Positions 37,041 to 60,556 of a stretch of 64,000 nt of DNA are shown here, piece after piece; position 1 is the first letter of the stretch; the number at the start of each line of letters is the position of its first letter. The stretch covers positions 3,342 to 67,341 of the forward strand of contig JAGXSC010000008.1 of assembly GCA_018334075.1 (NCBI GenBank), read 5' to 3'. The stretch comes from Actinomycetota bacterium (lineage in GTDB: Bacteria > Actinomycetota > Coriobacteriia > Anaerosomatales > UBA912). Both the position numbers and the translations under genes were made by a program. The notes under the pieces are model-generated. The model ran no database searches, had not been told where the DNA came from, and worked only from the letters and a program-made list of their open reading frames with translations.

Positions 37041-37059
37041 GAGAACAGGAGTGTTACAG

Positions 37060-38550
37060 ATGGCGATGAAGGACCTTCGTGAATTCATTGATATTCTCGA
37101 TCGACAGGGTCAACTCGTGCGCATTACCGAGGAGGTGGATCCTTACCTTGAGATAGGCGAAATCGCGGACCGAGTGAGCAAGGGATTCGGGCCCGGACTC
37201 CTCTTTGAAAACCCGATCAATCGCAAGACGGGCGAGCGCTACTCAATGCCCGTCGCCATCAACCTGATGGGAACATACGAGCGCATGGCCTGGGCGATGG
37301 GAGTTGATGCCCACACTGGCACCTGGAAGGATCTCGACGCAAAAGCCGCCGAGCTTATGGAGATGCTCCCACTCGACATGCCTGGCAGCATGAAGGGAAA
37401 GCTTGACTTGCTTGTTGGCCTTAAAGACATTGCTACGGCCGGACCCAGGGAGGTCAAGTCCGGTAAAGCACCTGTTCAGCAGGTGGTTTTGAGGGGCGAC
37501 GATGTTGACTTGACGAAGCTGCCGGTACTTACCACCTGGCCGAAAGACGGCGGCCCGTTTATTACCCTGCCACTGGTAGTCACGAACAACCTAAAGAATC
37601 GTCCCAACCTCGGTATGTATAGACTGCAGGTTTTTGACAAAAATACGACAGGACTCCACATTCACGAGCATCACGATGGCGCCAAGAACCTTCGGGCATG
37701 GGCCAAAGCTGGCTCAAAACGGGTACCCGTAGCCGCCGCTCTCGGATCTGATCCGATCACGATATTTTCTGCAACTGCTCCTGTTCCGCCGATGATAGAT
37801 GAGTACCTTTTTTCGGGAATTTTGCGCAAAGAGCCAGTTGAAGTCGTAAAGTGCGTTACCAATGATCTTATGGTGCCAGCGCATGCCGAAATTGTGCTTG
37901 AGGGATGGTGCGACCCGGATGAGGTTCGGTGGGAGGGTCCATTCGGCGACCACACCGGCTACTACTCGCTACCGGATAATTTCCCGGTTTTTCACGTAGA
38001 GGCGATCACCATGCGGCGCGACGCCATCTATCCTACGACGATTGTCGGCAAGCCTCCAATGGAGGATTGCTATATGGCCAAAGCCACCGAAAGGATATTT
38101 TTGCCGGTGATCAGGGCCATGTTGCCCGAAGTAATCGATTACGATTTGCCGCTCGAAGGCGTGTTTCATAACTGCGCCATATTCCGAATCAAGAAGGAGT
38201 TTCCCGGTCAGGCTTTTCGAGTTATGAACTTTGCGTGGTCTATGGGCCAGATGATGCTGACAAAATACGTTATCGTTGTCGACGAAGATGTTGACTGCCA
38301 CAACTACAGTGAGGTTGCCTGGCGATGCTTTAACAACGTGGATCCCAGTCGCGACATCCTGATCAGCAAAGGTCCGCTCGACAAGCTGGATCATGCGAGT
38401 AACTTCGAGAGCTTTGGATACAAGATGGGGATCGACGCGACCAAGCCCTTGCCGGGAGAAGGATATGATCGAGAGTGGCCAGAATCCCTGGAGATGGATG
38501 CGGAGGTCAAGGCCCGGATAGATGCGATGTGGGATGAGCTAGGCTTGTGA
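37060..38550 (+). CDS. ubiD: UbiD family decarboxylase (menaquinone/ubiquinone biosynthesis type)
   Basis: DLREFIDILDRQGQL.RI, FENP, GMYRLQV and GDHTGYY signatures. ATG 37060 after AGGAG. Confidence 0.9.
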   Translation: MAMKDLREFIDILDRQGQLVRITEEVDPYLEIGEIADRVSKGFGPGLLFENPINRKTGERYSMPVAINLMGTYERMAWAMGVDAHTGTWKDLDAKAAELMEMLPLDMPGSMKGKLDLLVGLKDIATAGPREVKSGKAPVQQVVLRGDDVDLTKLPVLTTWPKDGGPFITLPLVVTNNLKNRPNLGMYRLQVFDKNTTGLHIHEHHDGAKNLRAWAKAGSKRVPVAAALGSDPITIFSATAPVPPMIDEYLFSGILRKEPVEVVKCVTNDLMVPAHAEIVLEGWCDPDEVRWEGPFGDHTGYYSLPDNFPVFHVEAITMRRDAIYPTTIVGKPPMEDCYMAKATERIFLPVIRAMLPEVIDYDLPLEGVFHNCAIFRIKKEFPGQAFRVMNFAWSMGQMMLTKYVIVVDEDVDCHNYSEVAWRCFNNVDPSRDILISKGPLDKLDHASNFESFGYKMGIDATKPLPGEGYDREWPESLEMDAEVKARIDAMWDELGL

Positions 38551-39416
38551 CCTCATCGGCGTATAAGCTCCGCGGGCTTTTACAGATAGTCAAGTTCGAG
38601 CACTCGGTTTTTGCGCTGCCATATGCCTATGTAGGTGCCCTTTACGGAGTCGCCTCAGGGCTACCCCGGTTGGTGGATATCGTTTGGATTACGGTTGTGA
38701 TGATCTCGGCGCGTGCTTTTGCATTTCTGATCAACCGCATCGCGGACAAGGAGATAGACGCCAGAAATCCAAGGACCGCATCCCGTGCGATTCCCGCCGG
38801 AGTGATCAAGGTCAAAGAGGCACTGTTTTTTGCTGTGGCCATATTGGTGTTGTATCTTGTTGGGGTTTGGCAGCTCGATCCCGTCGCTCGATATCTATGG
38901 CCGATACCGCTCGTTGCGTTCATCGTATACCCCTACACCAAGCGCTTTACCCCGTTTTGCCACTACTGGCTGGGGATGTGTCTGGGGCTAGCCCCGGTCG
39001 GCGGCTGGGTAGCTGTAGGCGGCTCTATCCTGGATCCAGCGCCGTGGATTCTCGGCGTGGCAGTTATGCTTTGGACTGCAGGATTTGACATCATATACGC
39101 GACGCAGGATGTGGAGTGCGACGTTCGGGACAAGATCCACTCAATGCCTGCGGACTATGGAGTTTCTGCGGCATTGCTGCAAACCCGCATAGTTCATGCG
39201 CTAACGGTCGCGCTGCTGATCTTTGCCGGGTATCTGCTTCAAGCTGGTATCGCATGGTTTGTGGCTGTGGCACTGGCGGCGGTGCTGTTATTCTATGAGA
39301 ACAGCATTGTTTCGCCCAAAGATCTATCGCGCGTAAATGCCGCTTTCTTCCTTGTAAACGGCTGTATAGCGATAATCATCGGCAGTGGCGCTTTTATCGA
39401 CAGAGTTTTCGGATAG
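38547..39416 (+). CDS. ubiA: UbiA family aromatic prenyltransferase
   Basis: NRIADKEIDARNPRT (first Asp-rich motif) and YATQDVECD (second motif) in a 9-TM protein. GTG overlaps the ubiD stop. Confidence 0.85.
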   Translation: MTSSAYKLRGLLQIVKFEHSVFALPYAYVGALYGVASGLPRLVDIVWITVVMISARAFAFLINRIADKEIDARNPRTASRAIPAGVIKVKEALFFAVAILVLYLVGVWQLDPVARYLWPIPLVAFIVYPYTKRFTPFCHYWLGMCLGLAPVGGWVAVGGSILDPAPWILGVAVMLWTAGFDIIYATQDVECDVRDKIHSMPADYGVSAALLQTRIVHALTVALLIFAGYLLQAGIAWFVAVALAAVLLFYENSIVSPKDLSRVNAAFFLVNGCIAIIIGSGAFIDRVFG

Positions 39417-39423
39417 GAGAGCT

Positions 39424-40023
39424 ATGGCTCGTTACACGGTCATCATAACGGGTGCTTCGGGAAGCGTTTATGGGCTCCGTTTGATCGAGCAGCTGCTTGT
39501 GCGCGAGCATGAGGTGGTGATCTCGTATACGAAGACCGGGCGCGATGTATGTTCTTTCGAAACCGGGTTTGATCTTGGTAGTGAGGATATAACCAAGGCT
39601 CTTCTGCGATTCTTCGAGATTACCTCAGAGAATGCCAAGCTGCGCGTCGTTGAGCCTGACCGCATGTTCGACTCGATCGCTAGCGGATCACATCGGGTTG
39701 ACGCCACGGTAGTTGCTCCGGCAAGTATGGGATTTGTTGCACGGGTTGCAGGGGGGCTAGCCAACGATCTTCCCTCCAGAGCCGCGGATGTTGCGCTCAA
39801 GGAGCGTTGGCGCCTGGTGCTGGTGCCTCGGGAGACGCCCCTTTCCTTGGTTCACCTGCGCAATTTGACTGCATGCGCCGAGGCTGGTGCGGTCGTGCTT
39901 CCGGCTATGCCGGCATTTTATCAACAACCGCAAACGCTCGATGACTCAGTGAACTTTGTTGTAGGTAAGGTTCTGGACACACTGGGGGTTGAGCATCAGC
40001 TGTTTCCCCGATGGGGGACGTGA
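39424..40023 (+). CDS. ubiX: Flavin prenyltransferase UbiX
   Basis: VIITGASGSVYGLRLIE, VAPASMGF, RERWRLVLVPRETPLS. Confidence 0.9.
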   Translation: MARYTVIITGASGSVYGLRLIEQLLVREHEVVISYTKTGRDVCSFETGFDLGSEDITKALLRFFEITSENAKLRVVEPDRMFDSIASGSHRVDATVVAPASMGFVARVAGGLANDLPSRAADVALKERWRLVLVPRETPLSLVHLRNLTACAEAGAVVLPAMPAFYQQPQTLDDSVNFVVGKVLDTLGVEHQLFPRWGT

Positions 40024-41433: not shown

Positions 41434-41589
41434 ATGACCCTCGCACAAGCGCGTAAGCGCTATCCTTTGGTTCCCACCGAGATCATCCAGTGGGCGCTCG
41501 ATAACATTCCCAATCCTGCCGATGCCGAGCGCGGTCTTTTTCGGCTGGAGCAGGCCAAGCGCCTGGAGATCAAGTACGCCCGGATGTAA
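41434..41589 (+). CDS. Possible 51-aa protein (below the ORF-track cutoff)
   Basis: ATG 41434 preceded by CCAGGAGGT at ideal spacing. Translation MTLAQARKRYPLVPTEIIQWALDNIPNPADAERGLFRLEQAKRLEIKYARM. Followed by a small hairpin CAGCG-AGGG-CGCTG-TTT. Confidence 0.35.
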   Translation: MTLAQARKRYPLVPTEIIQWALDNIPNPADAERGLFRLEQAKRLEIKYARM

Positions 41590-41620
41590 CAGCGAGGGCG
41601 CTGTTTCGGCACAAGGTGAG

Positions 41621-41695
41621 TGGAGGCGACGCCCGGATTCGAACCGGGGATGAGGGCTTTGCAGGCCCCTGCCTTAGCCACTTGGCCACGTCGCC
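41621..41695 (-). tRNA. tRNA-Cys (anticodon GCA), CCA encoded
   Basis: Reverse complement GGCGACGTGGCCAAGTGGCTAAGGCAGGGGCCTGCAAAGCCCTCATCCCCGGTTCGAATCCGGGCGTCGCCTCCA folds as a cloverleaf with loop CTGCAAA. Confidence 0.9.
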
Positions 41696-41781
41696 ACAGT
41701 ACTACGATAGATCTATCTTTCAATCGGTCCCAAGCCCTTGCTTGCCTGTCGCATCTGCTTGACCGACTCGTGTAGGATGAG

Positions 41782-41857
41782 TGGAGCGGACGACGGGATT
41801 CGAACCCGCGACCCCAACCTTGGCAAGGTTGTGCTCTACCAACTGAGCCACGTCCGC
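41782..41857 (-). tRNA. tRNA-Gly (anticodon GCC), CCA encoded
   Basis: Reverse complement GCGGACGTGGCTCAGTTGGTAGAGCACAACCTTGCCAAGGTTGGGGTCGCGGGTTCGAATCCCGTCGTCCGCTCCA. Anticodon stem CAACC/GGTTG, loop TTGCCAA. Confidence 0.92.
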
Positions 41858-41993
41858 GCGAAGGGTAGTGTAGCAAGGGGTCTTGACCTGCGCAAGATGC
41901 TAGGTGTCTATGAGAATCTTCTTTCTCGGCTTTGCTTTTTTTCAGAGATTGGTACAATACCGTTCGTTGCAACTATTATGGCGATCACAAAAC

Positions 41994-42068
41994 GGGCGCT
42001 TAGCTCAGGGGGAGAGCGCTTCCTTGACACGGAAGAGGTCAGAGGTTCAAATCCTCTAGCGCCCACCA
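41994..42068 (+). tRNA. tRNA-Val (anticodon GAC), CCA encoded
   Basis: GGGCGCTTAGCTCAGGGGGAGAGCGCTTCCTTGACACGGAAGAGGTCAGAGGTTCAAATCCTCTAGCGCCCACCA. Anticodon stem CTTCC/GGAAG, loop TTGACAC. Confidence 0.92.
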
Positions 42069-42109
42069 TCAGTACTTCATGTCAGTATGACTTATTTGAA
42101 TGGACCGGC

Positions 42110-42673
42110 ATGTTCAAGGCGCTGACTTTGAGCCAAGGAAAGCGGGCTGGAAGAACATCACGTGTCCGTAGATTTCTCGGGCACGTGGTCTTATATCTGC
42201 TTATCTGGTTGGTAATCACCGGCGGCGATCTCTCTTCGCTCTTCTTCGGCGTGCCGTTTTCGATTATGGCTGCAGTTGTCTCAACTTCAATGTCGCGCCA
42301 GGACGCTTTACGGTTGAGCCCTTTGGGTATCGCGAGGTTCTTACTGTATTTCATGAAAAACTCACTTGTTGGAGGGGTAGACGTCGCGCTGCGGGCGATA
42401 AGGCCGTCAATGCCCCTCAATCCGGGATTTATAAACTTTGAATTCCGACTGCCATGTGATTTTTCGCGCGCCCTGCTATGCGACACCGTTAGCCTGTTGC
42501 CAGGCACATTGAGCGCGGGGTTCGTTCGTGACTCTGTGTATCTTCACGTTCTTGACGTGTCGCAGCCCGTGGAGAAGGAGACGCGCAAGATCGAGCAACT
42601 TATCGCCAATGCGCTCTGTATTGACCTCCCGGAAGCACCGGGCGATCATTTGACGGTTAGTGAAGATAGATGA
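42110..42673 (+). CDS. mrpE: Mrp/Mnh-type complex subunit E (MbhA-like)
   Basis: Two TM helices, then the ...VSLLPGTLSAG... motif (LTPGT-like) typical of MnhE. The longer ORF-track N-terminus runs through tRNA genes and was trimmed. Confidence 0.75.
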   Translation: MFKALTLSQGKRAGRTSRVRRFLGHVVLYLLIWLVITGGDLSSLFFGVPFSIMAAVVSTSMSRQDALRLSPLGIARFLLYFMKNSLVGGVDVALRAIRPSMPLNPGFINFEFRLPCDFSRALLCDTVSLLPGTLSAGFVRDSVYLHVLDVSQPVEKETRKIEQLIANALCIDLPEAPGDHLTVSEDR

Positions 42674-42963
42674 TTCCAGATGTGATATTCATGGGTTTTG
42701 CAACAGCAGTGCTGCTTACTATGTTGCTTGGATTTCTGCGAATCGAAATGGGTCCCACCCCTACCGATCGCATGCTTGCAGCCCAACTCTTCGGCACATC
42801 CGGAGTAGCCGTACTTCTCCTTCTCGCCGAGGCTCATTCACTGCCTGCCCTCCGGGATGCCGCTCTCGTTTTGGCTCTGCTGGCCGCTATCACAGGAATT
42901 GCGTTTGTGAAGCGTGCTTATCAGATTGATAGCAAAACCGCCGAGGAGGTTCAGGCCAAATGA
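42670..42963 (+). CDS. mrpF: Mrp/Mnh-type complex subunit F
   Basis: 97-aa, 3-TM protein with GPTPTDRMLAAQL, as in MrpF/PhaF. ATGA overlap with mrpE. Confidence 0.8.
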   Translation: MIPDVIFMGFATAVLLTMLLGFLRIEMGPTPTDRMLAAQLFGTSGVAVLLLLAEAHSLPALRDAALVLALLAAITGIAFVKRAYQIDSKTAEEVQAK

Positions 42964-43262
42964 ATTTCTTCGGCTACCTGACGATCGGTTTACTTGTTGT
43001 CGGTACTCTATTTTTTATAGCTGGCACCGTCGGACTACTTCGATTTCCAGACGTATATTCGCGTCTGCATGCTTTGACCAAGGCCGATAATCTCGGACTC
43101 GGGCTTGTGGCAATCGCGCTCGCAATCAACTCTAGCTCTGCGATTGTGTCGATCAGGCTGCTGATCACCTGGCTTCTTGTGCTCCTGGCCACCGCGACGA
43201 CGAGTCACCTGATCGCACGCGCGGCACGCGAAAACAATATTGAGCCCTGGAGACGACCGTGA
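42960..43262 (+). CDS. mrpG: Mrp/Mnh-type complex subunit G
   Basis: GTVGLLRFPDVYSRLHALTKADNLG is the MnhG signature. ATGA overlap with mrpF. Confidence 0.85.
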   Translation: MNFFGYLTIGLLVVGTLFFIAGTVGLLRFPDVYSRLHALTKADNLGLGLVAIALAINSSSAIVSIRLLITWLLVLLATATTSHLIARAARENNIEPWRRP

Positions 43263-43564
43263 GCACTTGGGAGTTTGCATTCGATGCATGGCTCGTAGTG
43301 GTGCTTATCTGGCTGGCTATTCGCACTCTGAGTGAAGCCAGGCTATTCAAGTCGGTAGTGCTGTTCATAGCGCTAGGCCTATTTGTGGCATTCGCCTGGG
43401 TCAGGCTGGATGCGCCTGATGTGGCCTTAACTGAAGCTGCGCTCGGGGCCGGAATAACCGGTGCACTGCTTCTCGACACCGTTGGTCACCTTCGTGGCCG
43501 AAAGGTTCCTTACTCCTCCGCCGAGAGAGATTCTCAAGGGAAGGCGAGTGCGAGCGATGTCTGA
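43259..43564 (+). CDS. MbhD/DUF4040 protein (equivalent to the MrpA C-terminal segment)
   Basis: RLDAPDVALTEAALGAGITG is the DUF4040 signature. GTGA overlap with mrpG. Confidence 0.8.
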   Translation: MSTWEFAFDAWLVVVLIWLAIRTLSEARLFKSVVLFIALGLFVAFAWVRLDAPDVALTEAALGAGITGALLLDTVGHLRGRKVPYSSAERDSQGKASASDV

Positions 43565-44282
43565 TATCACGGGAAACACTACGCGATGGCAGCGTCTGGC
43601 GATAATCTTTATCTTGGCGATAGTTTTTGTGATTATCGCTCGTGGTGTGGTGGCGATCCCAGAAGATATTCTCGGCGTGGCTCCGCACATAACATCCAAT
43701 TTGACCGTTAGCGGAGTTGCCAACCCGGTTACCGCGGTGCTCCTGAACTTTCGCGGGTACGATACCTTGCTGGAGATAGGAGTCCTGATGTTGGCGACCA
43801 TCGGGGTGCTCTCCCTGGCCAAGAACCTTTCACTTGCGCAGATGAGGTTTAGTCCGCCTGCAGATCCGGTTCTCGCATTGATGACGCGCATATCAGTTCC
43901 GCTGCTTGTGCTCATCTCAGGCTATCTGCTGTGGGCGGGGGAGAAGGCGCCCGGAGGCGCTTTTCAGGCCGGTAGCGTATTGGGTGCCGCGGGGGTTCTG
44001 CTTGCCTTATCGGGTCATACCCGCCCAGCTTGGCTGAATGTGTCGATGCTGAGGGCATCGATAGCGGTGGGATTTGTCGTGTTCCTCGCTGCAGCTGTTG
44101 TGCCGATGTTCCTCGGCAAAAATTTGCTCGAATATCCTGTTGCGCTGGCCAAAACGCTAATCATCGTCATAGAAACGTGGCTCACCCTTTCCATCGGTTT
44201 TATGTTGGTGAGCATGTTCATCGCATCTGCCGCGCCGATCAGCCGTAACTTGGAGGAGCCCGTTGATGCCGAGTCAGACTGA
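43557..44282 (+). CDS. mrpB: MnhB/MrpB-domain subunit (MbhE/F-like)
   Basis: VANPVTAVLLNFRGYDTLLEIGVL is the MnhB signature. ATG 43557 overlaps the preceding stop. Confidence 0.8.
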   Translation: MSDITGNTTRWQRLAIIFILAIVFVIIARGVVAIPEDILGVAPHITSNLTVSGVANPVTAVLLNFRGYDTLLEIGVLMLATIGVLSLAKNLSLAQMRFSPPADPVLALMTRISVPLLVLISGYLLWAGEKAPGGAFQAGSVLGAAGVLLALSGHTRPAWLNVSMLRASIAVGFVVFLAAAVVPMFLGKNLLEYPVALAKTLIIVIETWLTLSIGFMLVSMFIASAAPISRNLEEPVDAESD

Positions 44283-44580
44283 TCTTTTTTCACTTGCAGG
44301 GGCGGCGATATTCGTCATCGGGCTCTATGGCCTTCTTGTCCGTCCCCACTTTCTGCACAAGGTACTTGCACTCAACATCATGGCCGTGGCGATTTTTCTT
44401 CTTCTCGGCGCGATTGCCAGGCGCGTACCCGATCAGGCGCCCGATGCACTCCCTCATGCAATGGTGCTCACAGGAATCGTGGTTTCTGTTGCTGCGACTG
44501 CCTACTCGCTCGCTCTGATAAAGCGCATCTTTACCGATACGGGAGCTGTCTCATTCGAAGATGAGGTCTCCGATGAGTGA
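44266..44580 (+). CDS. mrpC: MrpC / NuoK-like subunit
   Basis: ~100-aa, 3-TM protein (IFVIGLYGLLVR...LALNIM...) resembling NuoK/MnhC. GGAGGAG SD before ATG 44266. Confidence 0.8.
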   Translation: MPSQTDLFSLAGAAIFVIGLYGLLVRPHFLHKVLALNIMAVAIFLLLGAIARRVPDQAPDALPHAMVLTGIVVSVAATAYSLALIKRIFTDTGAVSFEDEVSDE

Positions 44581-46054
44581 GGCGCTGGCTCAGCATCTTC
44601 CAGTTATGGCGATCGGAGTGCTGCTTTTTGCTGCGGCGGCTGCATTTCTGACGAGCTTCAGGGTCGCCCGCTGGATCGCGCTTGTAACCGCGGGCACACA
44701 GCCTCTACTTGCCGGCTGGCTGGCGGCATCGGTTATGCAGAGTGGTCCGGTGGTCTACTCTATCGGCGGCTGGGGGGCGCCATTAGGGATCGATCTTTAC
44801 GTTGATGGCCTGTCGGCCCTGATGATTTTACTGACCGCGATAGTGGGTTTTGTGGTTACGCTTTACTCGGCAGGCTACTTTGAGCCAAAGGAGAAATACC
44901 GGCTCTTCTGGCCTTTGTGGCTTTTCCTTTGGGGCTCGCTCGTTGCCCTGTTTGCTTCTAACGACATATTTAACCTCTATGTGTGCCTGGAGCTGCTCAG
45001 CATCTCTGCAGTAGCGCTGGTGGCTTTGGCGGGTACGCGCACAGCCTTGTTCGCGTCGATGAGATACCTGCTGTCAGCGTTGGCCGGCTCGCTGATATAT
45101 CTGTTCGGTGTGGCGATGGTGTACGGCTCCACTGGCGTTCTTAGCATCGACCTTTTATCCGAGTACAGTGGTGTCGACCCCGCGACCCAGGTAGGGCTTG
45201 CTTTGATGGTCGTGGGTCTTTTGATAAAGACGGCTCTCTTTCCAATGCATTTCTGGCTGCCGCCTGCGCACGCGAATGCTGTTGCGCCGGTCAGCGCGGT
45301 ACTTTCAGCTCTCGTTATTAAGGGCTCGTTCTACATCATTTTGCGTATCGTTTTCACCTTGCCCACCGAGGATCTGATTCCCGCACTGCCCACACTGCTG
45401 GGTGCCCTCGGAGTCGCTGCTATCGTTTGGGGCTCGGTAATGGCGTTTATGCAGAAGCGGTTGAAGATGATGGTGGCCTATTCGACGGTTGCGCAGATCG
45501 GGTATCTGTTTCTCATGTTCCCGCTGGCCTTTTCCGCCCTGGATGTCGAGGGCTCGATTCTTGCGATAAACGCCGGGGTGTTCCATGCGCTGTCGCATGG
45601 TTTGGCCAAGGGAGCCATGTTTCTCTCGGCGGGTGCGGTAGTTGCCTCCATTGGCCACGACAACATCGAGCGGCTTTCCGGACTCTCCCGGGTGGCGCCC
45701 GTCCAAGCGCTTACTTTCGGGCTGGCAGGCGTCTCGATGCTTGGATTACCGCCGAGCGGAGGTTTCGTCTCGAAATGGCTTTATGTTTCCGCTGCGCTCG
45801 ATACAGGGCAGTGGTGGTGGGCGGCGGTTGTTATGGTCGGAGGGCTGATGGCCGCAGCCTATGTGTTTAAGGCGGTTGGAGTGTTTATGCGCGAGCCGCA
45901 GGGGATCAAAGTGGAAACTACGCTCCCGCTGTCTACTTCGTGGGCCCCGCTTTCACTGGCGCTTATCTCACTGTTTCTGGGTGTATTCGGTCAGCCCGCA
46001 CTCGATCTTCTTGCGCCCGCCGCACAGGCGCTATCCGAAGGAATCCTCTCATGA
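44573..46054 (+). CDS. mrpD: MrpD / NuoM-N-like antiporter-like subunit (proton-conducting membrane transporter family)
   Basis: TM5 Glu (YVCLELLS), TM7 Lys (LLIKTALFPMHFWLPPAH), and the AYSTVAQIGY and FHALSHGLAKGAMFL motifs. The start could instead be 44561. Confidence 0.85.
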   Translation: MSEALAQHLPVMAIGVLLFAAAAAFLTSFRVARWIALVTAGTQPLLAGWLAASVMQSGPVVYSIGGWGAPLGIDLYVDGLSALMILLTAIVGFVVTLYSAGYFEPKEKYRLFWPLWLFLWGSLVALFASNDIFNLYVCLELLSISAVALVALAGTRTALFASMRYLLSALAGSLIYLFGVAMVYGSTGVLSIDLLSEYSGVDPATQVGLALMVVGLLIKTALFPMHFWLPPAHANAVAPVSAVLSALVIKGSFYIILRIVFTLPTEDLIPALPTLLGALGVAAIVWGSVMAFMQKRLKMMVAYSTVAQIGYLFLMFPLAFSALDVEGSILAINAGVFHALSHGLAKGAMFLSAGAVVASIGHDNIERLSGLSRVAPVQALTFGLAGVSMLGLPPSGGFVSKWLYVSAALDTGQWWWAAVVMVGGLMAAAYVFKAVGVFMREPQGIKVETTLPLSTSWAPLSLALISLFLGVFGQPALDLLAPAAQALSEGILS

Positions 46055-49000
46055 GCGCTGTGCAGATTGCGATCTTATCCGCTGTAGGTATTCCGTGGAT
46101 TGCCGCTGCAGGCCTGCTCGCGCTTGGGGAAAACAGAAACAGGGCTCGCCTTGTCACTGGCGTTGTAGCCGCGATTGCAACGACAGCCGCAGTGCTATAC
46201 CTGGGTTTCATCGTGGCGGGCCCGGCCGATCCGCCCTCAATCTATCTGCCGCTGCTGGGTATCGGGTTTGGGCTAATGGCTGACGGCCTGGGAGTTTTGT
46301 TCGCGCTTTTGGCAGCGTCGCTTTGGCTGGTAACTACGATCTATGCGACAGGCTATATGGCGAGCGCAAAGGACAAGGCTCGCTTTTTTGGATTTTTCGC
46401 AATATGCGTCGGCTCGGCAATCGGAATCGCGCTGTCATCCAATCTGCTGACGCTGTTCATATTCTACGAGGCCTTGACTTTGGCCACCTATCCACTGGTG
46501 GCTCACAAGGGAACCGAAGCCGCAATTCGTGGCGGCCGGACGTATCTCAAGTACGCCCTTACCGGCGGAGCAGCGCTTGCGCTTGGCACTATCTGGCTCT
46601 ACTCGATGGGGGCTGGGTCATTTATCCCGGGAGGATCAATCCCGGCGGAGCTCTTTGACTCACACGGCGGTCAGCTGACCGTCATCTTTGCATTGTTGAT
46701 TGCGGGATTTGGTGTGAAAGCAGCGCTATTTCCCGCACATGGGTGGTTGCCTGCGGCTATGGTCGCTCCCGCTCCGGTCAGCTCGCTGTTGCATGCTGTT
46801 GCCGTAGTCAAGGCGGGCGTTTTTGGCATTGCACGCGTTGTCCTTGACCTCTTCGGTCCAGCCGGCGCAGCATATCTCGGGGTTCTTGCGCCACTTGCCG
46901 GCCTAGCTGCCTTCACAATTGTTTTTGCTTCTATAAAGGCGCTCTTGCAAGACGACATCAAGAAGCGGCTCGCTTACTCGACTATCGGTCAGCTCTCTTA
47001 TATCGTCCTTGGGATTGCTATTGGTACTCCGATTGCGATCGCTGCAGCTTGCGCTCACCTTGCTCACCATGCGTTGATGAAGATCACGATGTTTTTCACA
47101 GCAGGAGCGCTTGAGAAGGAGCTGAAGATAAGTCGAGTAAGCCAGATGGACGGTATTGGCAAACGGATGCCACTGACCATGCTCGCGTTCTCCGTCGCCG
47201 CGCTAGGGATCATTGGTGTGCCCCCGGCTGCGGGGTTTGTCTCCAAGTGGGGGCTAGGTCTCGGCGGTCTTGAAGCGAATCAGTTGTGGCCTCTTGGGGT
47301 TCTGGCTCTAAGTAGCGTCTTGAACGCCGTTTACCTGATGCCCATGATCGGGCGCGCCTGGTTCGGTCAGCTAGATCCGAAACTGGCCGAAACCTGGCGC
47401 ACGCCGAGCAGAAACTCTAGCGAGGCTGACCGCAGGCTCGTATTGCCGCTGGTGTTCACCTCCGCACTTGGCTTACTGGCCGGTCCTGCAGCAGTGTTCG
47501 CGTGGTCGCCCGCCTCATGGTCTGCCGCCATAGCGGGCGCCGACCTTTCGCTTGCTATACCTTGGCGCCTCGCTGCATTAGCACTTGATGATTACGGCCT
47601 ACTCTTTCTTTGGGTTACGGTTGTGGCTTGGAGCGCTTCTTTCATCGCCCTATGGAGATCAGGGCTATCCGAGAAGCCTCGTTTCTACACCTTTTTCCTG
47701 CTTTCTGCGTTGGGCTCCGTTGGGCTCGCTTTCGCTTTGGATCCGGCAATATTTTATGCGTGCTTCTCGGTCATGGCGCTCTCTGCCTATGGCTTGATAG
47801 TTCACAGCGGAACCGCCGAGGCCAAAAAAGCGGGCAGAATCTATCTTGCCTTCACGGTTGTTGCCGAGGCGCTTCTTCTTGCTGGACTGCTGATCGGGTC
47901 TTACGGCGCTGCAGGGTTTTCGATTGTGCTTGCCGAGTCGCAGTGGCGTGATTTGGGGATCGGTCTTTTGATTGCCGCATTCGGCATCAAGATCGGCGCG
48001 CTTGGCGTTCATGGGTGGATGCCCTTTGCTTATCACGCTGTGCCAAGAGGTGTCGGCGCGGCAATAGCAGGAGTGGTCTCCTCGGCGGGTATTCTTGGAA
48101 TGATCAGATTTTTGCCCGGAGGTGTCGCTGATTTTGAAGCGTGGGGTATATTTCTGATCGGCATCGGCCTTGTGACAGCGTTTTATGCGGCGCTCGTCGG
48201 TTGTCTTCAGCACGAATCCAGGCACGTACTCGCGTATTCAAGCATGAGTCAATTTGGCATCATGGTTATCGGGATCGGAGCGGGGATGGCTTCAGCCGAA
48301 ATGTGGCCTGTCGCCGCCTCCGCGGTTGCCATTTATATGCTTCACCATGGGTTCGCCAAGGCCGCCTTGTTCTCTGGCGATGATCATCGTACTGCCTTCG
48401 GGTCAGGCGTGTTGATTTTGGGCGCGCTGGGTGTCGCCGGTGTGGCTCTAGCCGGGTTGCCCTTTACAAGTGGGGCCGTAGCCAAAACAGCTCTGAAAGA
48501 AGCGCTATATCTTGCCCCCCTGGCCAACGCTCTCGAAATCCTTCTCCCATTGACCGCGGTTGGCACTACCTTGTTGATGTCGAGATTTCTCGTGCTTGTT
48601 GCAACAGGCTCAGGTGCGGAGAAAATCAGCAAGGGTCAAAAGCCGGGATCCGCCGCATCACTTGCAATACTGATTGTGTTTACAGCGGGATTTGCGTGGC
48701 TAAGTAGTTATCAGCCGATATCTTATGCCGCCGATAAGTCACTGTCGTTGGCCACCTCTGTCGCGCTGATTTGGCCCGTCGCACTTGGTGCTGTGATCGC
48801 CCTAGCGTTTTGGATCGCGCGCGGCACTAGAGCCGTCAGGTCGCTTCCTGGACTCCTTCCACCCGGCGACCTCATGTCACCGATTATGAACTCCTTCGAC
48901 CGGCTCTGGCTCGCTTACCAGGGGTCATTGATAGAGCCGCGTCCCGAGAAAGTCCGGACGCCCTTCTCGGCAGAGCGCTTATATATTGCGCTTGGACTGG

Positions 49001-49080
49001 AAAAACGACTGATTACATGGCGGATCGCAGCTGTTGGGGTTGCGCTTCTGTTGGCAGTTATACTGTTGATGACGCTGTGA
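46051..49080 (+). CDS. Tandem fusion of two antiporter-like (MrpD/NuoL-M-N family) modules, 1009 aa
   Basis: Module 1 (~aa 1-490) has FYEALTLA, GFGVKAALFPAHGWLP, SSLLHAVAVVKAG, AYSTIGQLSY and HHALMKITMFF. Module 2 (~aa 530-870) has GIKIGALGVHGWMP, AYSSMSQFG and HHGFAKAALF but lacks the TM5 Glu and the TM8 His/Lys. ATGA overlap with mrpD. Confidence 0.8.
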   Translation: MSAVQIAILSAVGIPWIAAAGLLALGENRNRARLVTGVVAAIATTAAVLYLGFIVAGPADPPSIYLPLLGIGFGLMADGLGVLFALLAASLWLVTTIYATGYMASAKDKARFFGFFAICVGSAIGIALSSNLLTLFIFYEALTLATYPLVAHKGTEAAIRGGRTYLKYALTGGAALALGTIWLYSMGAGSFIPGGSIPAELFDSHGGQLTVIFALLIAGFGVKAALFPAHGWLPAAMVAPAPVSSLLHAVAVVKAGVFGIARVVLDLFGPAGAAYLGVLAPLAGLAAFTIVFASIKALLQDDIKKRLAYSTIGQLSYIVLGIAIGTPIAIAAACAHLAHHALMKITMFFTAGALEKELKISRVSQMDGIGKRMPLTMLAFSVAALGIIGVPPAAGFVSKWGLGLGGLEANQLWPLGVLALSSVLNAVYLMPMIGRAWFGQLDPKLAETWRTPSRNSSEADRRLVLPLVFTSALGLLAGPAAVFAWSPASWSAAIAGADLSLAIPWRLAALALDDYGLLFLWVTVVAWSASFIALWRSGLSEKPRFYTFFLLSALGSVGLAFALDPAIFYACFSVMALSAYGLIVHSGTAEAKKAGRIYLAFTVVAEALLLAGLLIGSYGAAGFSIVLAESQWRDLGIGLLIAAFGIKIGALGVHGWMPFAYHAVPRGVGAAIAGVVSSAGILGMIRFLPGGVADFEAWGIFLIGIGLVTAFYAALVGCLQHESRHVLAYSSMSQFGIMVIGIGAGMASAEMWPVAASAVAIYMLHHGFAKAALFSGDDHRTAFGSGVLILGALGVAGVALAGLPFTSGAVAKTALKEALYLAPLANALEILLPLTAVGTTLLMSRFLVLVATGSGAEKISKGQKPGSAASLAILIVFTAGFAWLSSYQPISYAADKSLSLATSVALIWPVALGAVIALAFWIARGTRAVRSLPGLLPPGDLMSPIMNSFDRLWLAYQGSLIEPRPEKVRTPFSAERLYIALGLEKRLITWRIAAVGVALLLAVILLMTL

Positions 49081-49101: not shown

Positions 49102-49431
49102 ATGAAGGCTTCTCGGCTAGCTTTGGCAGGACTGATGGTTGTACTGTCAGTAGCGACTTTTGGCGTGCTGGCTGGCTGCGCTCCGACTGACGCAAGTCAG
49201 GACCCGCCAGCAGAGGTTCAAGAAGATGCGACCCCCGCTGCGGAGGATCCCCTCAGCCCGCAGGCGCTCGTTGAAAGCAGATGCTCGGCGTGTCATACAC
49301 TTGATCGGGTCCAAGCTGCCGAGTACGATAGGGCGGGATGGGAGCGGACTGTTGATCGCATGGTGGGCAAAGGCCTCAATCTGACGGACGAGGAGTACGC
49401 CGCTATAGTCGAGTATCTCTCGACGCGGTAA
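49102..49431 (+). CDS. Lipoprotein monoheme c-type cytochrome
   Basis: Signal peptide with lipobox VLAGC. A single CSACH haem-binding motif followed by ...W..TV.RM...(E)EY..IV.YL. AAAGGGG SD. Sits 21 nt after the fused antiporter gene. Confidence 0.7.
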   Translation: MKASRLALAGLMVVLSVATFGVLAGCAPTDASQDPPAEVQEDATPAAEDPLSPQALVESRCSACHTLDRVQAAEYDRAGWERTVDRMVGKGLNLTDEEYAAIVEYLSTR

Positions 49432-54368: not shown

Positions 54369-55931
54369 GTGGCCCTGAGAGTGCCTGTAACATTCGAGCC
54401 TCAGGGAATCACAGTTTGGGTTGAATCCGGGGTTCCGTTGACTTTGGCGGCTGAGGTCGCAGGCGTTTCTGTTGCGCTGCCGTGTGGCGGTCGGGGTATC
54501 TGCGGAGGGTGCGCTGTTAAGGTCGCCAAAGGCGCACTAGCCTCACCGGCGGAGAGTGAATGCGCCATGCTTCGAAGAGCCCCTGAGGGAGTTCGGCTAG
54601 CGTGTCAGGCCAGGGTATCTGGTGCCGTAACCGTTTCTGTCTTACAAAATGACCCACGTGAGAAGGTTTGCGCTTTTAAGAGCCCTGGCTTCGAGGGACC
54701 GCCGGTTATTGCAATCGACTGTGGCTCAACGATGATAACCGTACTGGTTGCTGATTCAGCTACCGGCCTCCAGCACTCCAGGGCTTCGGTGATAAATGGG
54801 CAAGCAGGGCTTGGAGCGGATATCGTCTCTAGGGTCGACTTAGGGCTCAGGGGGCATGGGAGTGAACTGCAGGCGGCGATCACAAAGTCGCTTTCCTGTG
54901 CGCTTGAGTCGGCGTGCGCAACCGCCGGTATCGACCTTCCGGACGTTCAGCGGACGACGGTGGTCGGCAATCCTGTAATGATAGCAACGCTTCTCGGCGC
55001 CGATTTGAGTGGATTCGCCGCCGCTCCATATCTCATTCCGGAGCAGGTTAAGCATCCAGTACACACTGAACCGCTAGCGCATATTTTAGGGTTGAGCAGC
55101 GAGATTTTCATAGTGCCCCCGATTGCATCTTTTGTAGGCGGGGATATGGTCGCGGGACTCTTTGCGTCCGGAGTTGATCGACAAACGCAGCACACTCTCT
55201 ATCTCGATATCGGCACCAACGCTGAGCTTGCCCTGGTGCATGACGGTAGGATCACGGTTACATCGGTTCCAGCAGGACCCGCCTTCGAGGGACACGGAAT
55301 CGCCTACGGGGGAGTTTTCGGAGAGGGAGCTGTTACCGGTGCGCGTCTCGGAGATCATGACATACTGCTTGAGGTTGAGGGCGCTTCGACGCCAAAGCGA
55401 CTGTGTGGGTCCGGACTGGTGTCAGTTATCACCTTGCTTAGGCAGGCAGGGCACATCGATGCTGCCGGGAGAGTTTGGCCGCAGGGGCCCTTGGGTTACA
55501 GGTTCAAAAGGATCCAAGAAGAGCTCGCTTTTGCTCTTGGGGAGGATGGTTCGGGTCCGTATGTTTTTCAGGGTGACGTAAGAGCTTTTCAGCTTGCGAA
55601 AGCTGCGGTTTTGGCTGGGGTCAGGAGTTTGATAGAGAAATCTGGAGTAAGCGTGCGCCATACGATAGTCTCCGGAGCTTTTGGGGGAGCGGTCACAGCG
55701 AAGCAAATGATGCGCCTCGGGATCATTCCGTCAGATACCGGGGAGGTTCGAGTATTCAACGATGCGGCCCTGTTGGGCGCCATGGCGCTTGCCTTATCAC
55801 CCGACAGCATCTCCGGCTTTGAGGATCTGTACGAGATTATGGCGCATGAAGAGCTGGCGACCAGTGATTTATTCAAGCGGGCCTTTGTTGATGCAACGAG
55901 CCTGGAGCCCTGGGAGGGTGCGCATCCTTGA
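54369..55931 (+). CDS. 2Fe-2S ferredoxin domain fused to an ASKHA/DUF4445 domain (RACo-like corrinoid activation ATPase family)
   Basis: N-terminal plant-type ferredoxin Cys pattern CGGRGICGGCAV...C, then IAIDCGSTM and LDIGTNAEL (ASKHA phosphate motifs). Confidence 0.8.
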   Translation: MALRVPVTFEPQGITVWVESGVPLTLAAEVAGVSVALPCGGRGICGGCAVKVAKGALASPAESECAMLRRAPEGVRLACQARVSGAVTVSVLQNDPREKVCAFKSPGFEGPPVIAIDCGSTMITVLVADSATGLQHSRASVINGQAGLGADIVSRVDLGLRGHGSELQAAITKSLSCALESACATAGIDLPDVQRTTVVGNPVMIATLLGADLSGFAAAPYLIPEQVKHPVHTEPLAHILGLSSEIFIVPPIASFVGGDMVAGLFASGVDRQTQHTLYLDIGTNAELALVHDGRITVTSVPAGPAFEGHGIAYGGVFGEGAVTGARLGDHDILLEVEGASTPKRLCGSGLVSVITLLRQAGHIDAAGRVWPQGPLGYRFKRIQEELAFALGEDGSGPYVFQGDVRAFQLAKAAVLAGVRSLIEKSGVSVRHTIVSGAFGGAVTAKQMMRLGIIPSDTGEVRVFNDAALLGAMALALSPDSISGFEDLYEIMAHEELATSDLFKRAFVDATSLEPWEGAHP

Positions 55932-55996: not shown

Positions 55997-56547
55997 ATAC
56001 GCCTTCCCCTGGCTCTAACCCCTGAGTCTCTTGCGGGTCTTCTGCTCCATAGGAGCCACTTGCGCATAGCGATGCCGGTCAACCATGCATACCCGCTTGT
56101 TCGCTGTCCGGGTTCCCCGGAATCAGCTTATGCCGGGAAGGAAACTTTCCTTGAGGGCAATGTAGCATCAATCAAATGGGTTGTCACTATTGTTACAAGT
56201 AAATCTTTCTTCAGGTTTGTGGATTTAAGTTCATGGTAGTGCTCATAGGCTTCCCGAAGGGCGGAATGGTTGATCATGTACATGCGGTATGAACGAAAAG
56301 GGCTTCCTCGCCATTCGCCATACTCTCGTGGAGGTGCGGGAGGATTGGGAGGTGGAAGACTTGGGGCTAACTACAGCCGCCTACCGAATATCCTGCGCCG
56401 TCCGCCTATTGCGGTTGCCTACCAAGTCCATTTCTTTGTATTTTTGTGCAACAGTAAGTGAGGGCGCTGCCGATTGTTGTGGCAAAGGTTGCTGGCATAA
56501 CAATTTCGGCATTACTCAATCATGTCCGGTTGAATGGAGGTAGTGCG

Positions 56548-58539
56548 ATGAGTGATGGTTCCAAATCTATTGAATCAATGATGAGCGAGCTAAGGATTGT
56601 AGAGCCAGCAAAATGGGTGAGTGAGAAGGCCCATATCAAGAGTATGGACGAGTATCAGGCGATGTATGATCGCTCGATTTCCGACCCCGAGGGCTTCTGG
56701 GCCGACATGGCGGAAGAATACCTGCACTGGCAGACACCCTTCAATAAAGTGGTCGAATGGGAGTTTGAGACCCCAAGAGTCCAATGGTTTCTTGGGGGAA
56801 AGACTAACGTAGCGTACAACTGCATCGATCGGCATCTGACCACATGGCGTCGTAACAAGGCGGCCCTGATCTGGGAATCAGACGATGGCAGTACTGCAAC
56901 CTATACATACCAGTCGCTCTACTTCAAGGTTTGCCGGTTCGCCAACGTCTTGAAAAAGCACGGCGTAAAAAAGGGAGACCGTGTCGCTATCTACCTGCCG
57001 ATGCTTCCCGAGCTGGCCGTAGCTATGCTTGCCTGCGCTCGCATCGGAGCGATCCACTCGATTGTTTTCGGAGGTTTTTCGGCGCAGGCGCTGCGTGACC
57101 GCATCCAGGACTGCGAGGCGAAGCTCTTGGTGACCGCCGATGAGGGGCTACGAGGAGGACGTCCGGTTTCTCTCAAGGCCATGTCGGATGAAGCGCTCGC
57201 CGAGTGCCCTTCGATTGAGAGCGTGATCGTGGTCAAGCGCACGGGTGGTACGGTTGAGATGAAGGAAGGCCGTGACAGCTGGTATCACGAAGAGGTCAAT
57301 GCGCCTGATATCTCACAGCATTGCGATGTCGAGTGGATGGATTCAGAGGATCCACTATTCATCCTCTACACATCCGGTTCGACCGGTAAGCCCAAAGGCG
57401 TGCTGCACACAACGGCTGGCTATCTCCTCTATGCGACCATGACCTTCAAGTACACGTTTGACTATCACGACGAGGATGTCTTTTTCTGCACTGCCGATAT
57501 CGGCTGGGTAACGGGACACAGCTATGTTGTCTATGGCCCACTGTCGCTGGGAGCCACCTCATTGATGTTCGAGGGCGTTCCAACCTATCCGGATGCCGGC
57601 AGGTTCTGGGAGATAGTGGAAAAGCACGGCGTGAATCAATTCTATACCGCTCCAACCGCAATTCGCGCACTCATGAGACTGGGTGATGAGTGGCCAGCCA
57701 AGTACGATCTTTCCAGCCTTCGCGTTTTGGGTACCGTTGGGGAGCCGATCAATCCAGAGGCGTGGATGTGGTATTTCAAGACGATCGGCAAAGAGCGAAT
57801 TCCGGTTGTGGACACATACTGGCAAACCGAGACAGGAGGCCATGTCATCACCAACCTCCCTGGAGCCACGCCGATGAAACCGGGTTCGGCGACTCGTCCA
57901 TTCTTTGGTATCCAGCCAGTGGTGCTAAACGAGGACAAAAGCGAGACCGAGGTAGGTTCCGGAGGACGCCTCTGCATCAAGTACCCGTGGCCCGGGATCT
58001 TGCGCGGCACTTGGGGAGACCCTGAAAATGCGCGGGTAAAAGAAGTGTACTTCACTACATTCCCTGGACACTACTTTACCGGCGACGGGGCTCGCAAGGA
58101 CGCCGATGGGTACTACTGGCTTCTCGGCAGGGTCGATGACGTCATCAATGTATCGGGTCATCGAATGGGTACCGCCGAGGTTGAAAGCGCGCTTGTATCG
58201 CATCCTTCAGTCGCCGAGGCGGCAGTTGTCGGATTCCCGCACGAGATAAAGGGTGAGGGAATCTACGCGTACGTCATCTTGCGGGGCGGAAATGAGGCCA
58301 CTCCTGAGCTGATGAAGCAGCTCGTCGCGCATGTTCGCAAGGAGATCGGGCCGATCGCAACACCGGACCTCATCCACTTCGTGCCGGAGCTTCCCAAGAC
58401 TCGTTCCGGCAAGATCATGCGCAGGATTCTTCGCAAGATCGCAGCGGGGGAGACCGATATCTCGGGCTTTGGGGATATCTCCACTCTCGCCGACCCCTCG
58501 ATCGTTCAGACGATTCTGGAAACACGTCCGGCTGGGTAA
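56548..58539 (+). CDS. acs: Acetyl-CoA synthetase (AMP-forming)
   Basis: [51 protein letters not shown] and [11 protein letters not shown] are canonical Acs. ATG 56548 after GGAGG. Confidence 0.95.
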
Positions 58540-60196: not shown

Positions 60197-60556
60197 ATGA
60201 GTGCTTACAGTGTATGGTTTGTATTGGGCCTTGGCATCTCCTCGATGCTCTTTATTCTTGTGGTTTTCGGCGCAAATATACTGCTTTCGCCTCGTAATCC
60301 TTCTACCGAAAAAAACGAGCCCTATGAGTGCGGAATGCCTCAGGCTGGTTTTGCCTGGAACAAGGTCAACCTGCGGTTCTCCACTTTGGCGGTTTTGTTT
60401 GTCCTGTTTGACGCTGCTGCCATTTTGCTCTTTGGGGTTGCAGTTGCCCTGCGAGGATCACCCGGTTCTTTGATCGCTTTTCTGCCGCTACTTGGCTTTT
60501 TGTGCCTCGGATTGCTCTACGCATGGCGGAAGGGGGCATTGCAGTGGCACTTGTAG
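60197..60556 (+). CDS. nuoA: NADH-quinone oxidoreductase (complex I-like) subunit A
   Basis: 3-TM, 119-aa protein with EPYECG and RFSTLAVLFVLFD motifs. Confidence 0.9.
   Translation: MSAYSVWFVLGLGISSMLFILVVFGANILLSPRNPSTEKNEPYECGMPQAGFAWNKVNLRFSTLAVLFVLFDAAAILLFGVAVALRGSPGSLIAFLPLLGFLCLGLLYAWRKGALQWHL

Follow-up and report, generated by a model that had tools for sequence, protein, structure and literature searches.

A tandem fusion of two antiporter-like modules in an Mrp-type operon of an Actinomycetota bacterium

The fused gene and its predicted fold

A window of 64,000 nucleotides (nt) from the genome of an Actinomycetota bacterium (Coriobacteriia, Anaerosomatales; assembly GCA_018334075.1, contig JAGXSC010000008.1, positions 3,342 to 67,341), by which we mean the whole stretch analysed, contains on its forward strand a gene at 46051..49080 that encodes two antiporter-like membrane modules in one polypeptide of 1009 amino acids (aa). 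It is the last gene of an Mrp-type operon. An earlier inspection of the letters, referred to here as the sequence-only reading, described it as an unusual covalent fusion of a competent module with a partly disabled one. Following this up by homology searches, structure prediction, residue-level alignment and an analysis of selection, we conclude that the gene is a real and evolutionarily conserved fusion and that its second module, judging from the residues it retains, is most likely an active, electrostatically coupled, proton-conducting end module.

The open reading frame (ORF) comprises 1009 codons from the ATG at 46051 to the TGA at 49080, with no internal stop. Its start codon forms an ATGA overlap with the stop codon of the preceding mrpD gene and has a GAAGGA motif just before it; an alternative GTG start at 45940 is possible, and the three closest homologues are 1009-1011 aa long. 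The protein matches PF00361 (Proton_antipo_M) in two separate stretches (E 7.7e-76; 255.5 bits against a cut-off of 21.5), which places it in the antiporter-like superfamily, and PF00662 in one. All motifs quoted in the sequence-only reading are present in the translation, and its description of a covalent tandem of two antiporter-like modules is thereby confirmed.

An AlphaFold2 model built with 120 homologues (mean predicted local distance difference test score, pLDDT, 92.6; predicted template modelling score, pTM, 0.91) divides the protein into module 1 (aa 1-485; 46051..47505), an inter-module linker of 28 residues (aa 486-513; 47506..47589), the core of module 2 (aa 514-853; 47590..48609) and a C-terminal extension (aa 854-1009 plus the stop codon; 48610..49080), all on the forward strand. 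The fold expected by the sequence-only reading, two repeats of 14 transmembrane helices (TM), was borne out for module 1, which has 14 helices in a canonical arrangement; module 2 lacks TM1-2 and its core comprises TM3-TM14. Broken helices, as in the TM7 of this two-inverted-repeat fold, were modelled at residues 206-223/232-238 and 633-647/656-663. In Foldseek searches against the PDB, each single antiporter-like chain covered about 0.43 of the fused model, and the matches included NuoL, MrpD, NdhF, MbhH and MbsH (E 1e-15 to 1e-19, target TM-score up to 0.87), with a probability of 1.00 for NuoL, MrpD and MbhH. The C-terminal extension, delimited by DSSP on the model and by the family consensus, contains two further TM helices, a conserved PPGD motif, amphipathic helices at 940-961 and 974-988 and a terminal TM helix at 990-1008, and may represent a short lateral helix with its anchor, although these helices are short and were modelled with low confidence (pLDDT 52-61 over the last 50 residues).

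The Mrp-type operon

The fused gene is preceded in the same orientation by seven genes. These are mrpE of the MNHE family (42110..42673; PF01899, E 3.4e-27; homologues called at loci L003 and L085), mrpF (42670..42963; PF04066, E 1.8e-10), which overlaps mrpE by 4 nt, mrpG (42960..43262; PF03334, E 2.9e-26; TIGR01300, 78.4 bits against a cut-off of 63.1), an mbhD-like gene corresponding to the first part of the MrpA C-terminal domain (43259..43564; PF13244 MbhD, E 9.5e-18), a fusion of mbhE-like and mrpB (MnhB) sequences encoding 241 aa (43557..44282; PF20501 MbhE and PF04039 MnhB), which was also called in L085 and L086, a NuoK-like mrpC (44266..44580; PF00420, E 3.5e-17) and a canonical mrpD of 493 aa (44573..46054; PF00361, E 4.6e-51), in whose translation the TM5 Glu, TM7 Lys, TM8 Lys, TM11 H..H..K motif and TM12 Lys are all present. 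Neighbouring genes overlap by 4, 8 or 17 nt, and the Pfam families named constitute the gene content of an Mrp (CPA3) operon. The same gene order recurs in Pseudoalteromonas (L001, L002), in another Coriobacteriia genome (L004) and in close relatives.

No NCBIfam MrpA model came near its cut-off in the operon (best 239 bits against 937), and separate mbhD/E-like genes encode the C-terminal domain of MrpA. MbhD together with MbhE is homologous to that domain (PMC7419157), and the mbhE/mrpB fusion resembles the arrangement of MbsE, which combines MbhE and MbhF (PMC8415708). The operon therefore falls within group 3 of Mrp systems, defined by the lack of mrpA, one or more mrpD-type large subunits and a non-canonical gene order (PMC8415708). 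Neither a redox-module gene nor a DabA gene lies beside it, either in the window or at the related loci of Pseudoalteromonas and Coriobacteriia; the nearest NuoB/D/H-like genes belong to a nuo operon that begins about 11 kb away.

Upstream the operon is bordered by a tRNA-Val gene, which belongs to a cluster of three tRNA genes at 41621-42068 directly in front of mrpE, namely tRNA-Cys and tRNA-Gly (-) and tRNA-Val(GAC) (+). The start of mrpE, either the ATG at 42110 or a later GTG/TTG, is uncertain because spurious ORFs at 41460-41972 (-) and 41738-42673 (+) cross this cluster. Downstream follow a gene for a small cytochrome c and, in convergent orientation, one for a lipid kinase. The former (49102-49431, +; 109 aa; PF09098, PF13442 and SorB-like matches) starts 21 nt past the stop of the fused gene; it was considered as a part of the system and rejected, since it is syntenic in three close relatives and absent in Pseudoalteromonas and in Coriobacteriia. 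Scans with Rfam and for promoters and terminators around the operon returned only the tRNAs and chance-level matches.

At the Pseudoalteromonas loci, a gene for a P-type cation ATPase of 916 aa (1241-3991 in L001/L002; Cation_ATPase_N/C, E1-E2) shares 4 nt with the start of mrpE and is itself preceded by a LysR regulator. This arrangement hints that the extended Mrp system is co-expressed with a primary cation pump in gammaproteobacteria.

Key residues of the two modules

Module 1 aligns with MbsH, NdhF, MbhH and MrpA at 134-141 bits in phmmer searches, and strongly also with MrpD. It carries the canonical charge pattern of the family (TM5 Glu, TM7 Lys, TM8 Lys/His, TM12 Lys/Glu), with E140 in TM5, K223 in TM7, H248 and K254 in TM8, H336/H340/K344 in TM11 and K399 in TM12 ('GFVSKW'), and these key residues are invariant across an alignment of 121 fused proteins (the window protein and its relatives, described below). 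The hallmark residues that the sequence-only reading had listed for this module (E140, K223, H248, K254 and K344) are thus present, but its 'TM12' label for the HHALMK motif, and likewise for HHGFAK of module 2, was misplaced: both are TM11 motifs of the NuoL H334/H338/K342 type, and the TM12 residues are K399 and K812.

Module 2 does not show the canonical pattern. A residue alignment to MbhH (6cfw_H), which begins at MbhH residue 79, places S573 opposite the TM5 Glu and S678 opposite the TM8 Lys, as well as K647 opposite the TM7 Lys, K770 opposite the Lys of 'H..H..K' and K812 opposite the 'SKD' Lys of ND5. When the module-2 family was aligned as a profile with NdhF, MrpD, MbhH and MbsH', the same equivalences were obtained as with the single sequence. 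The observation that module 2 lacks an acidic TM5 residue and a TM8 His or Lys, and keeps the TM7 Lys (K647) and the Lys of HHGFAK (K770), was therefore upheld, the alignments putting Ser at both canonical positions and not an acid, His or Lys. The sequence-only reading had overlooked E606 in TM6, an invariant Glu of module 2. In the gene, S573 is encoded at nt 47767-47769, E606 at 47866-47868, K647 at 47989-47991, S677/S678 (the TM8 Lys position) at 48079-48084 and K812 (TM12, 'SGAVAKT') at 48484-48486. Further key residues are V603 at the position of NuoL Arg175, R724 in TM10 and H765/H766/K770 in TM11.

NuoL contains two ion pairs, Lys229/Asp178 and Arg175/Glu144 (PMC13144422), and molecular dynamics simulations place Asp178 on the central hydrophilic axis, where it shares a proton with Glu144 (PMC13358369). 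In the profile alignment E606 coincides with the Asp of NdhF 'NRVGD', which is the NuoL Arg175/Asp178 motif, and no Arg stands at the Arg position. Module 2 does not fit the NuoL/ND5 class either: of the TM6 'RxGD' motif (Arg175/Asp178), the TM5 Glu144 and the TM8 His254 of that class it retains only the acid, as E606, and has V603 for the Arg, S573 for the Glu and I672 for the His. The position of the TM6 acid is occupied by Gly, Ser or Ala in MrpA, MrpD, MbhH and module 1, and because of this the acid is to be seen as a trait that module 2 shares with NuoL, NdhF, ND5 and DabB. MrpA was rejected as its origin, since the MrpA of B. pseudofirmus has Gly there, unlike module 2. Despite the NuoL-type TM6 acid, TM8 of the module-2 subfamily is MrpD-like.

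A widespread module-2 subfamily

A search of 5.8 billion proteins with the whole fused protein gave 1,785 matches, and the best 120 of these (878-1125 aa, the shortest named partial by its source) aligned through both modules. They derive from many phyla, with sources including Pseudoalteromonas, Halomonas, Colwellia, Pirellulaceae, Brocadiae and Coriobacteriia, and a scan of species-representative genomes yielded related stretches, at least 556 in number and spread over a great many phyla, as fused or as split genes. The fusion is thus not unusual, contrary to what the sequence-only reading had held. Many homologues in the scan belong to taxa with haloalkaline names or to metagenome-assembled genomes from soda lakes. 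When module 2 alone was searched with HMMER against 1.84 billion representatives, 7,781 proteins were found, 783 of them at E<1e-30, and the best 150 matches were mostly stand-alone proteins of 570-590 aa, the product of a gene of about 580 codons with some 50 additional N-terminal residues relative to module 2 of the window. Among 84 fetched loci, about 8 had the fused gene and about 45 a separate module-2-like ORF. Two extra NuoM- and NuoL-like genes after mrpD had already been noted in Nitrospira (PMC7784846). Within Coriobacteriia, both fused and split pairs of modules 1 and 2 occur (L009-L011 and L035-L037 versus L004); therefore, fusion or fission took place more than once, or paralogous operons coexist.

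Conservation was assessed in two sets, the 121 fused proteins (the best 120 matches and the window protein) and 148 rows made up of module 2 of the window and 147 mostly stand-alone representatives, about 270 sequences in all with identities to the query down to about 35%. Position 573 holds T, A, S, G or V in the fused proteins and is acidic in none of the ~270 relatives examined, and position 603 is V, I, L or M in the 148 rows. E606 is Glu in 121 of 121 fused proteins, and in the 148 rows Glu in 141 and Asp in 4. K647, H766, K770 and K812 are invariant in the fused proteins and essentially invariant in the 148 rows, in which position 724 is always Lys or Arg. Taken together, these alignments assign module 2 to a distinct and widespread subfamily that occurs as a separate gene or as part of a fusion. 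Because the Arg175/Glu144-type pair is lost in both partners and the Lys229/Asp178-type pair is kept, the change looks like coherent remodelling rather than decay, the key acidic residue having apparently moved from TM5 to TM6 instead of being lost.

The short-linker clade

The fused proteins split into two groups, a long-linker group of 89 (the ~1070-aa clade) and a short-linker group of 32 that includes the window protein (the ~1010-aa clade). Over the stretch corresponding to aa 481-527 the long-linker proteins have 95-120 aa, retaining TM1-2 of module 2, whereas 31 short-linker proteins have 46 aa and one has 50 aa, with total lengths of 1006-1022 aa. The groups also differ in the TM8 position, which is Lys in 80 of the 89 long-linker proteins and Ser or Thr in all but one of the 32 short-linker proteins. 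As far as the alignments go, the loss of the TM8 Lys is genuine, specific to this clade, itself conserved and the sole real deficit of module 2. Relative to the ~1070-aa clade, the short clade shows Q340H and T357E in module 1, and H661Y together with gains of D694, H725, D778 and E829 in module 2; these changes in charged residues accompanying K678S may be compensatory.

Selection on the fused gene

Ratios of nonsynonymous to synonymous substitution rates (dN/dS) were estimated by the Nei-Gojobori method between the window gene and three close relatives with 98%, 87% and 79% identity. They amounted to 0.06-0.10 for module 1, 0.085-0.13 for the core of module 2, 0.075-0.27 for the linker and 0.18-0.42 for the C-terminal extension. 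The highest value for the linker, 0.27 against the 98% relative, rests on no more than seven differences, and the two more distant relatives gave 0.14 and 0.075. Purifying selection on module 2 is as strong as on module 1.

Comparison with known systems

The window operon resembles the stand-alone group-3 Mrp of Pyrococcus furiosus, whose gene order is mrpEFGBB'CD (PMC8415708), in having E-F-G, split MrpA C-terminal/MrpB pieces, C and D in succession. Like group-3 systems including multi-mrpD clusters, such as mrpCD1D2EFGAB of Aphanothece halophytica, it has no canonical mrpA, no redox module and more than one MrpD-like module. It differs from them in adding a 1009-aa gene that fuses two further modules, which makes three in all, and in that the subfamily to which its last module belongs has no TM5 Glu. 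Two candidates for a characterised member were dismissed: the eight-gene Mrp operon of anammox bacteria spans only 5.66 kb and is of a different type, and the Mrp of Thermomicrobium belongs to group 1.

Both modules share fold and family with the N-terminal domain of MrpA, MrpD (6z16, 7qru, 7d3u), MbhH, MbsH and MbsH'. In the solved Mrp, Mbh and Mbs complexes, however, the modules are separate polypeptides, each with a TM5 Glu, unlike in the fused gene, and a survey of fusions in complex I mentions only NuoCD and NuoBCD. Features that module 2 has in common with NuoL are a carboxylate in TM6 at the position of Asp178, by homology paired with the TM7 Lys, a Lys or Arg in TM10, the His..Lys motif of TM11, the Lys of TM12 and, as predicted, an extension at the C-terminus in which amphipathic helices are followed by a last TM helix. 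Unlike NuoL, it is devoid of the TM5 Glu, the TM6 Arg, the 'histidine switch' of TM8 and, in the window protein, TM1-2; in TM8 most relatives carry a Lys as MrpD does, whereas the window's clade has Ser, and the predicted lateral helix is far shorter.

A parallel in residue pattern is DabB2 of the DAB2 CO2-hydration complex, a functional protein that likewise keeps the TM7 Lys/TM6 acid pair (Lys235/Asp185) with a non-acidic TM5, having Ile151 in place of the Glu, and in which re-introduction of the Glu halves the growth yield (PMC13144422). The residues H339/H343/K347 of DabB2 are the equivalent of NuoL His334/His338/Lys342. In contrast to DabB2, module 2 has no TM6 Arg (R182 in DabB2, V603 here) and its gene stands in an Mrp operon without a DabA gene, and Dab chains were absent among the best 60 PDB matches of module 2. 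NdhF3 of the cyanobacterial NDH-1MS complex is also a terminal subunit with remodelled central charges that keeps a Glu/Lys pair (PMC6358722), but its central residues became hydrophobic and it binds CupA/S, whereas module 2, which lacks a partner of this sort, has retained its TM11 and TM12 residues.

Interpretation and alternatives

We consider it probable, at roughly 0.6, that the gene supplies a group-3 Mrp antiporter of three modules with its two distal ones, module 2 being an active variant end module with a TM6-Glu/TM7-Lys pair. Resting on the directly observed gene architecture, residue pattern, conservation and purifying selection, this explanation proposes that the fused gene would supply the two outermost modules of a stand-alone, eight-gene, mrpA-less Mrp-type cation/proton antiporter, with MrpD and modules 1 and 2 forming a row of three antiporter-like modules like NuoN, NuoM and NuoL of complex I. 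Module 1 would be a canonical proton-translocating module. In module 2, K647 would be paired with the invariant E606 as Lys229 is with Asp178 in NuoL, a remodelling of the kind seen in DabB2, and the second half-channel would be intact with the TM10 Arg/Lys, the TM11 His-His-Lys and the TM12 Lys. Because this pair and the second half-channel are kept, module 2 is probably an active proton-conducting end module and not a dead spacer. The ~1010-aa clade is a further reduced form, with TM1-2 of module 2 deleted and the TM8 Lys replaced by Ser-Ser/Thr, and with the central Lys replaced, lateral proton transfer in the middle of module 2 would have to proceed via water and hydroxyl groups. The E606-K647 ion pair is proposed by homology to NuoL and DabB2, and inference also underlies the order of the modules in space, the lateral helix, the conduction of protons and the antiport activity.

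Several points weigh against this explanation. The central TM8 Lys is truly gone in the short clade, as is the TM7b His (H661Y), which could break the proton path. Module 2 is far more divergent from the solved subunits than module 1 (60 versus 141 bits), a purely structural membrane module would likewise be expected to be under purifying selection, and the literature searched yielded no experimental characterisation of a member of this type of operon or of the module-2 subfamily.

The alternative that survives best, which we regard as possible though clearly less probable, is that module 2 is partly disabled and non-translocating, serving as a structural end-cap or an electrostatic coupling element of a two-pump antiporter composed of MrpD and module 1. 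It would account for the absence of the TM5 Glu from the whole subfamily, for the additional lack of the TM8 Lys/His, the TM7b His and TM1-2 in the window's clade and for the faster protein-level divergence of module 2 than of module 1, and it has a precedent in NdhF3 of NDH-1MS, whose central channel residues are replaced and which is predicted to be without proton channels (PMC6358722). Against it, the TM6 Glu, TM7 Lys, TM11 His/Lys and TM12 Lys are invariant, and TM10 always has a Lys or Arg, across ~270 sequences, and the Ser-Ser/Thr that stands for the TM8 Lys is itself conserved, in 31 of the 32 proteins of the clade; the acidic partner seems relocated rather than lost, DabB2 is functional with the same pattern, and the dN/dS of module 2 equals that of module 1. 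Of the term 'partly disabled' used in the sequence-only reading, what stands is the loss of the TM8 Lys, and that in one clade only; the retained TM6, TM7, TM10, TM11 and TM12 residues and the selection on the module do not agree with it.

It is improbable, in our estimation, that module 2 actively conducts another ion or works with an altered stoichiometry, for instance as a Na+/K+-conducting path or a one-sided half-channel that alters the H+:cation ratio at high pH. The serine-rich TM8, the clade-specific gains of H725, D778 and E829, the enrichment of homologues in taxa with haloalkaline names and the P-type cation ATPase overlapping mrpE in Pseudoalteromonas would all fit such a role, but the retained residues are those to which proton transfer is ascribed in NuoL (PMC13358369), and the Na+ path in solved Mrp and membrane-bound hydrogenase (MBH) complexes was assigned to the small-subunit region (PMC7419157).

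We see very little chance that the protein is a subunit of a respiratory complex such as that encoded by the nuo operon ~11 kb downstream. The window does contain nuoA-B-C-D-H starting at 60197, and the whole protein just passes TIGR01972 of the NuoM subfamily (268.4 bits against a cut-off of 263.8); yet the fused gene is translationally coupled to mrpD (ATGA) within a complete mrp operon, eight unrelated genes and one tRNA separate it from nuoA, and the operons of Pseudoalteromonas and Coriobacteriia have no adjacent nuo genes. Finally, the joining of two adjacent genes by a missed stop or a frameshift, suggested by the common occurrence of split module-1-like and module-2-like genes in other genomes, can be practically discarded, as three independent assemblies (ENA, Logan and JGI) contain the fused ORF intact and in full synteny, with identities of 98, 87 and 79%, all 32 members of the short clade have the same junction, which measures 46 aa except in one member with 50 aa, and purifying selection acts on the linker.

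Other genes in the window

The nuo operon on the forward strand comprises nuoA (60197-60556), nuoB, nuoC, nuoD (61589-62761) and nuoH (62656-63708) before it runs off the window. With nuoE/F/G absent between D and H, the complex I encoded would seem to be of the 11-subunit type, devoid of the module that oxidises NADH. Upstream of the mrp operon, a quinone-biosynthesis cluster at 37051-40023 (+), with a UbiD-like decarboxylase, a UbiA prenyltransferase and a UbiX-like flavoprotein, is syntenic in a close relative (L003). Between the mrp and nuo operons, a RACo-like protein (2Fe-2S and ASKHA domains; corrinoid reductive-activator family) at 54369-55931 (+) adjoins an acetyl-CoA synthetase at 56458-58539 (+), a pair that suggests an anaerobic or Wood-Ljungdahl-related background of the organism.

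Meaning of the fusion

Fold, family and operon type are not new, and databases contain the protein in large numbers, under generic names. Multi-mrpD group-3 clusters have been described as well, as has the loss of the TM5 Glu with the TM6-acid/TM7-Lys pair kept (in DabB2). What appears to be undescribed in the papers searched is the module-2 subfamily in an Mrp context, its fusion to a canonical module and the reduced clade without the central Lys. Going further, one might tentatively see in the module-2 lineage a third antiporter-like class, without the TM5 Glu and TM6 Arg and with an invariant TM6 Glu, stand-alone or fused, that defines a three-module 'extended' Mrp common among haloalkaliphiles, the window's clade then having a minimal end module that is perhaps a half-channel or an electrostatic terminator fed laterally from module 1; we regard this proposal as doubtful at present.

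For complex I, Mrp, MBH and related pumps there is still debate about what the TM5 Glu/TM7 Lys pair and the central TM8 Lys contribute to long-range coupling and to the lateral transfer of protons. The lineage described here offers a naturally selected and widespread module without the TM5 Glu that apparently relies on the TM6 carboxylate alone, and also a subclade that dispenses with the central Lys. Moreover, mrpA-less Mrp operons can hold three antiporter-like modules, two of them fused, which bears on the origin of the N-M-L array of complex I. The practical value will be modest until some member is expressed and assayed; if the reading of module 2 as a minimal end module is true, this family would provide a natural test of the need for the TM5 Glu and the central TM8 Lys in coupling across the complex I superfamily.

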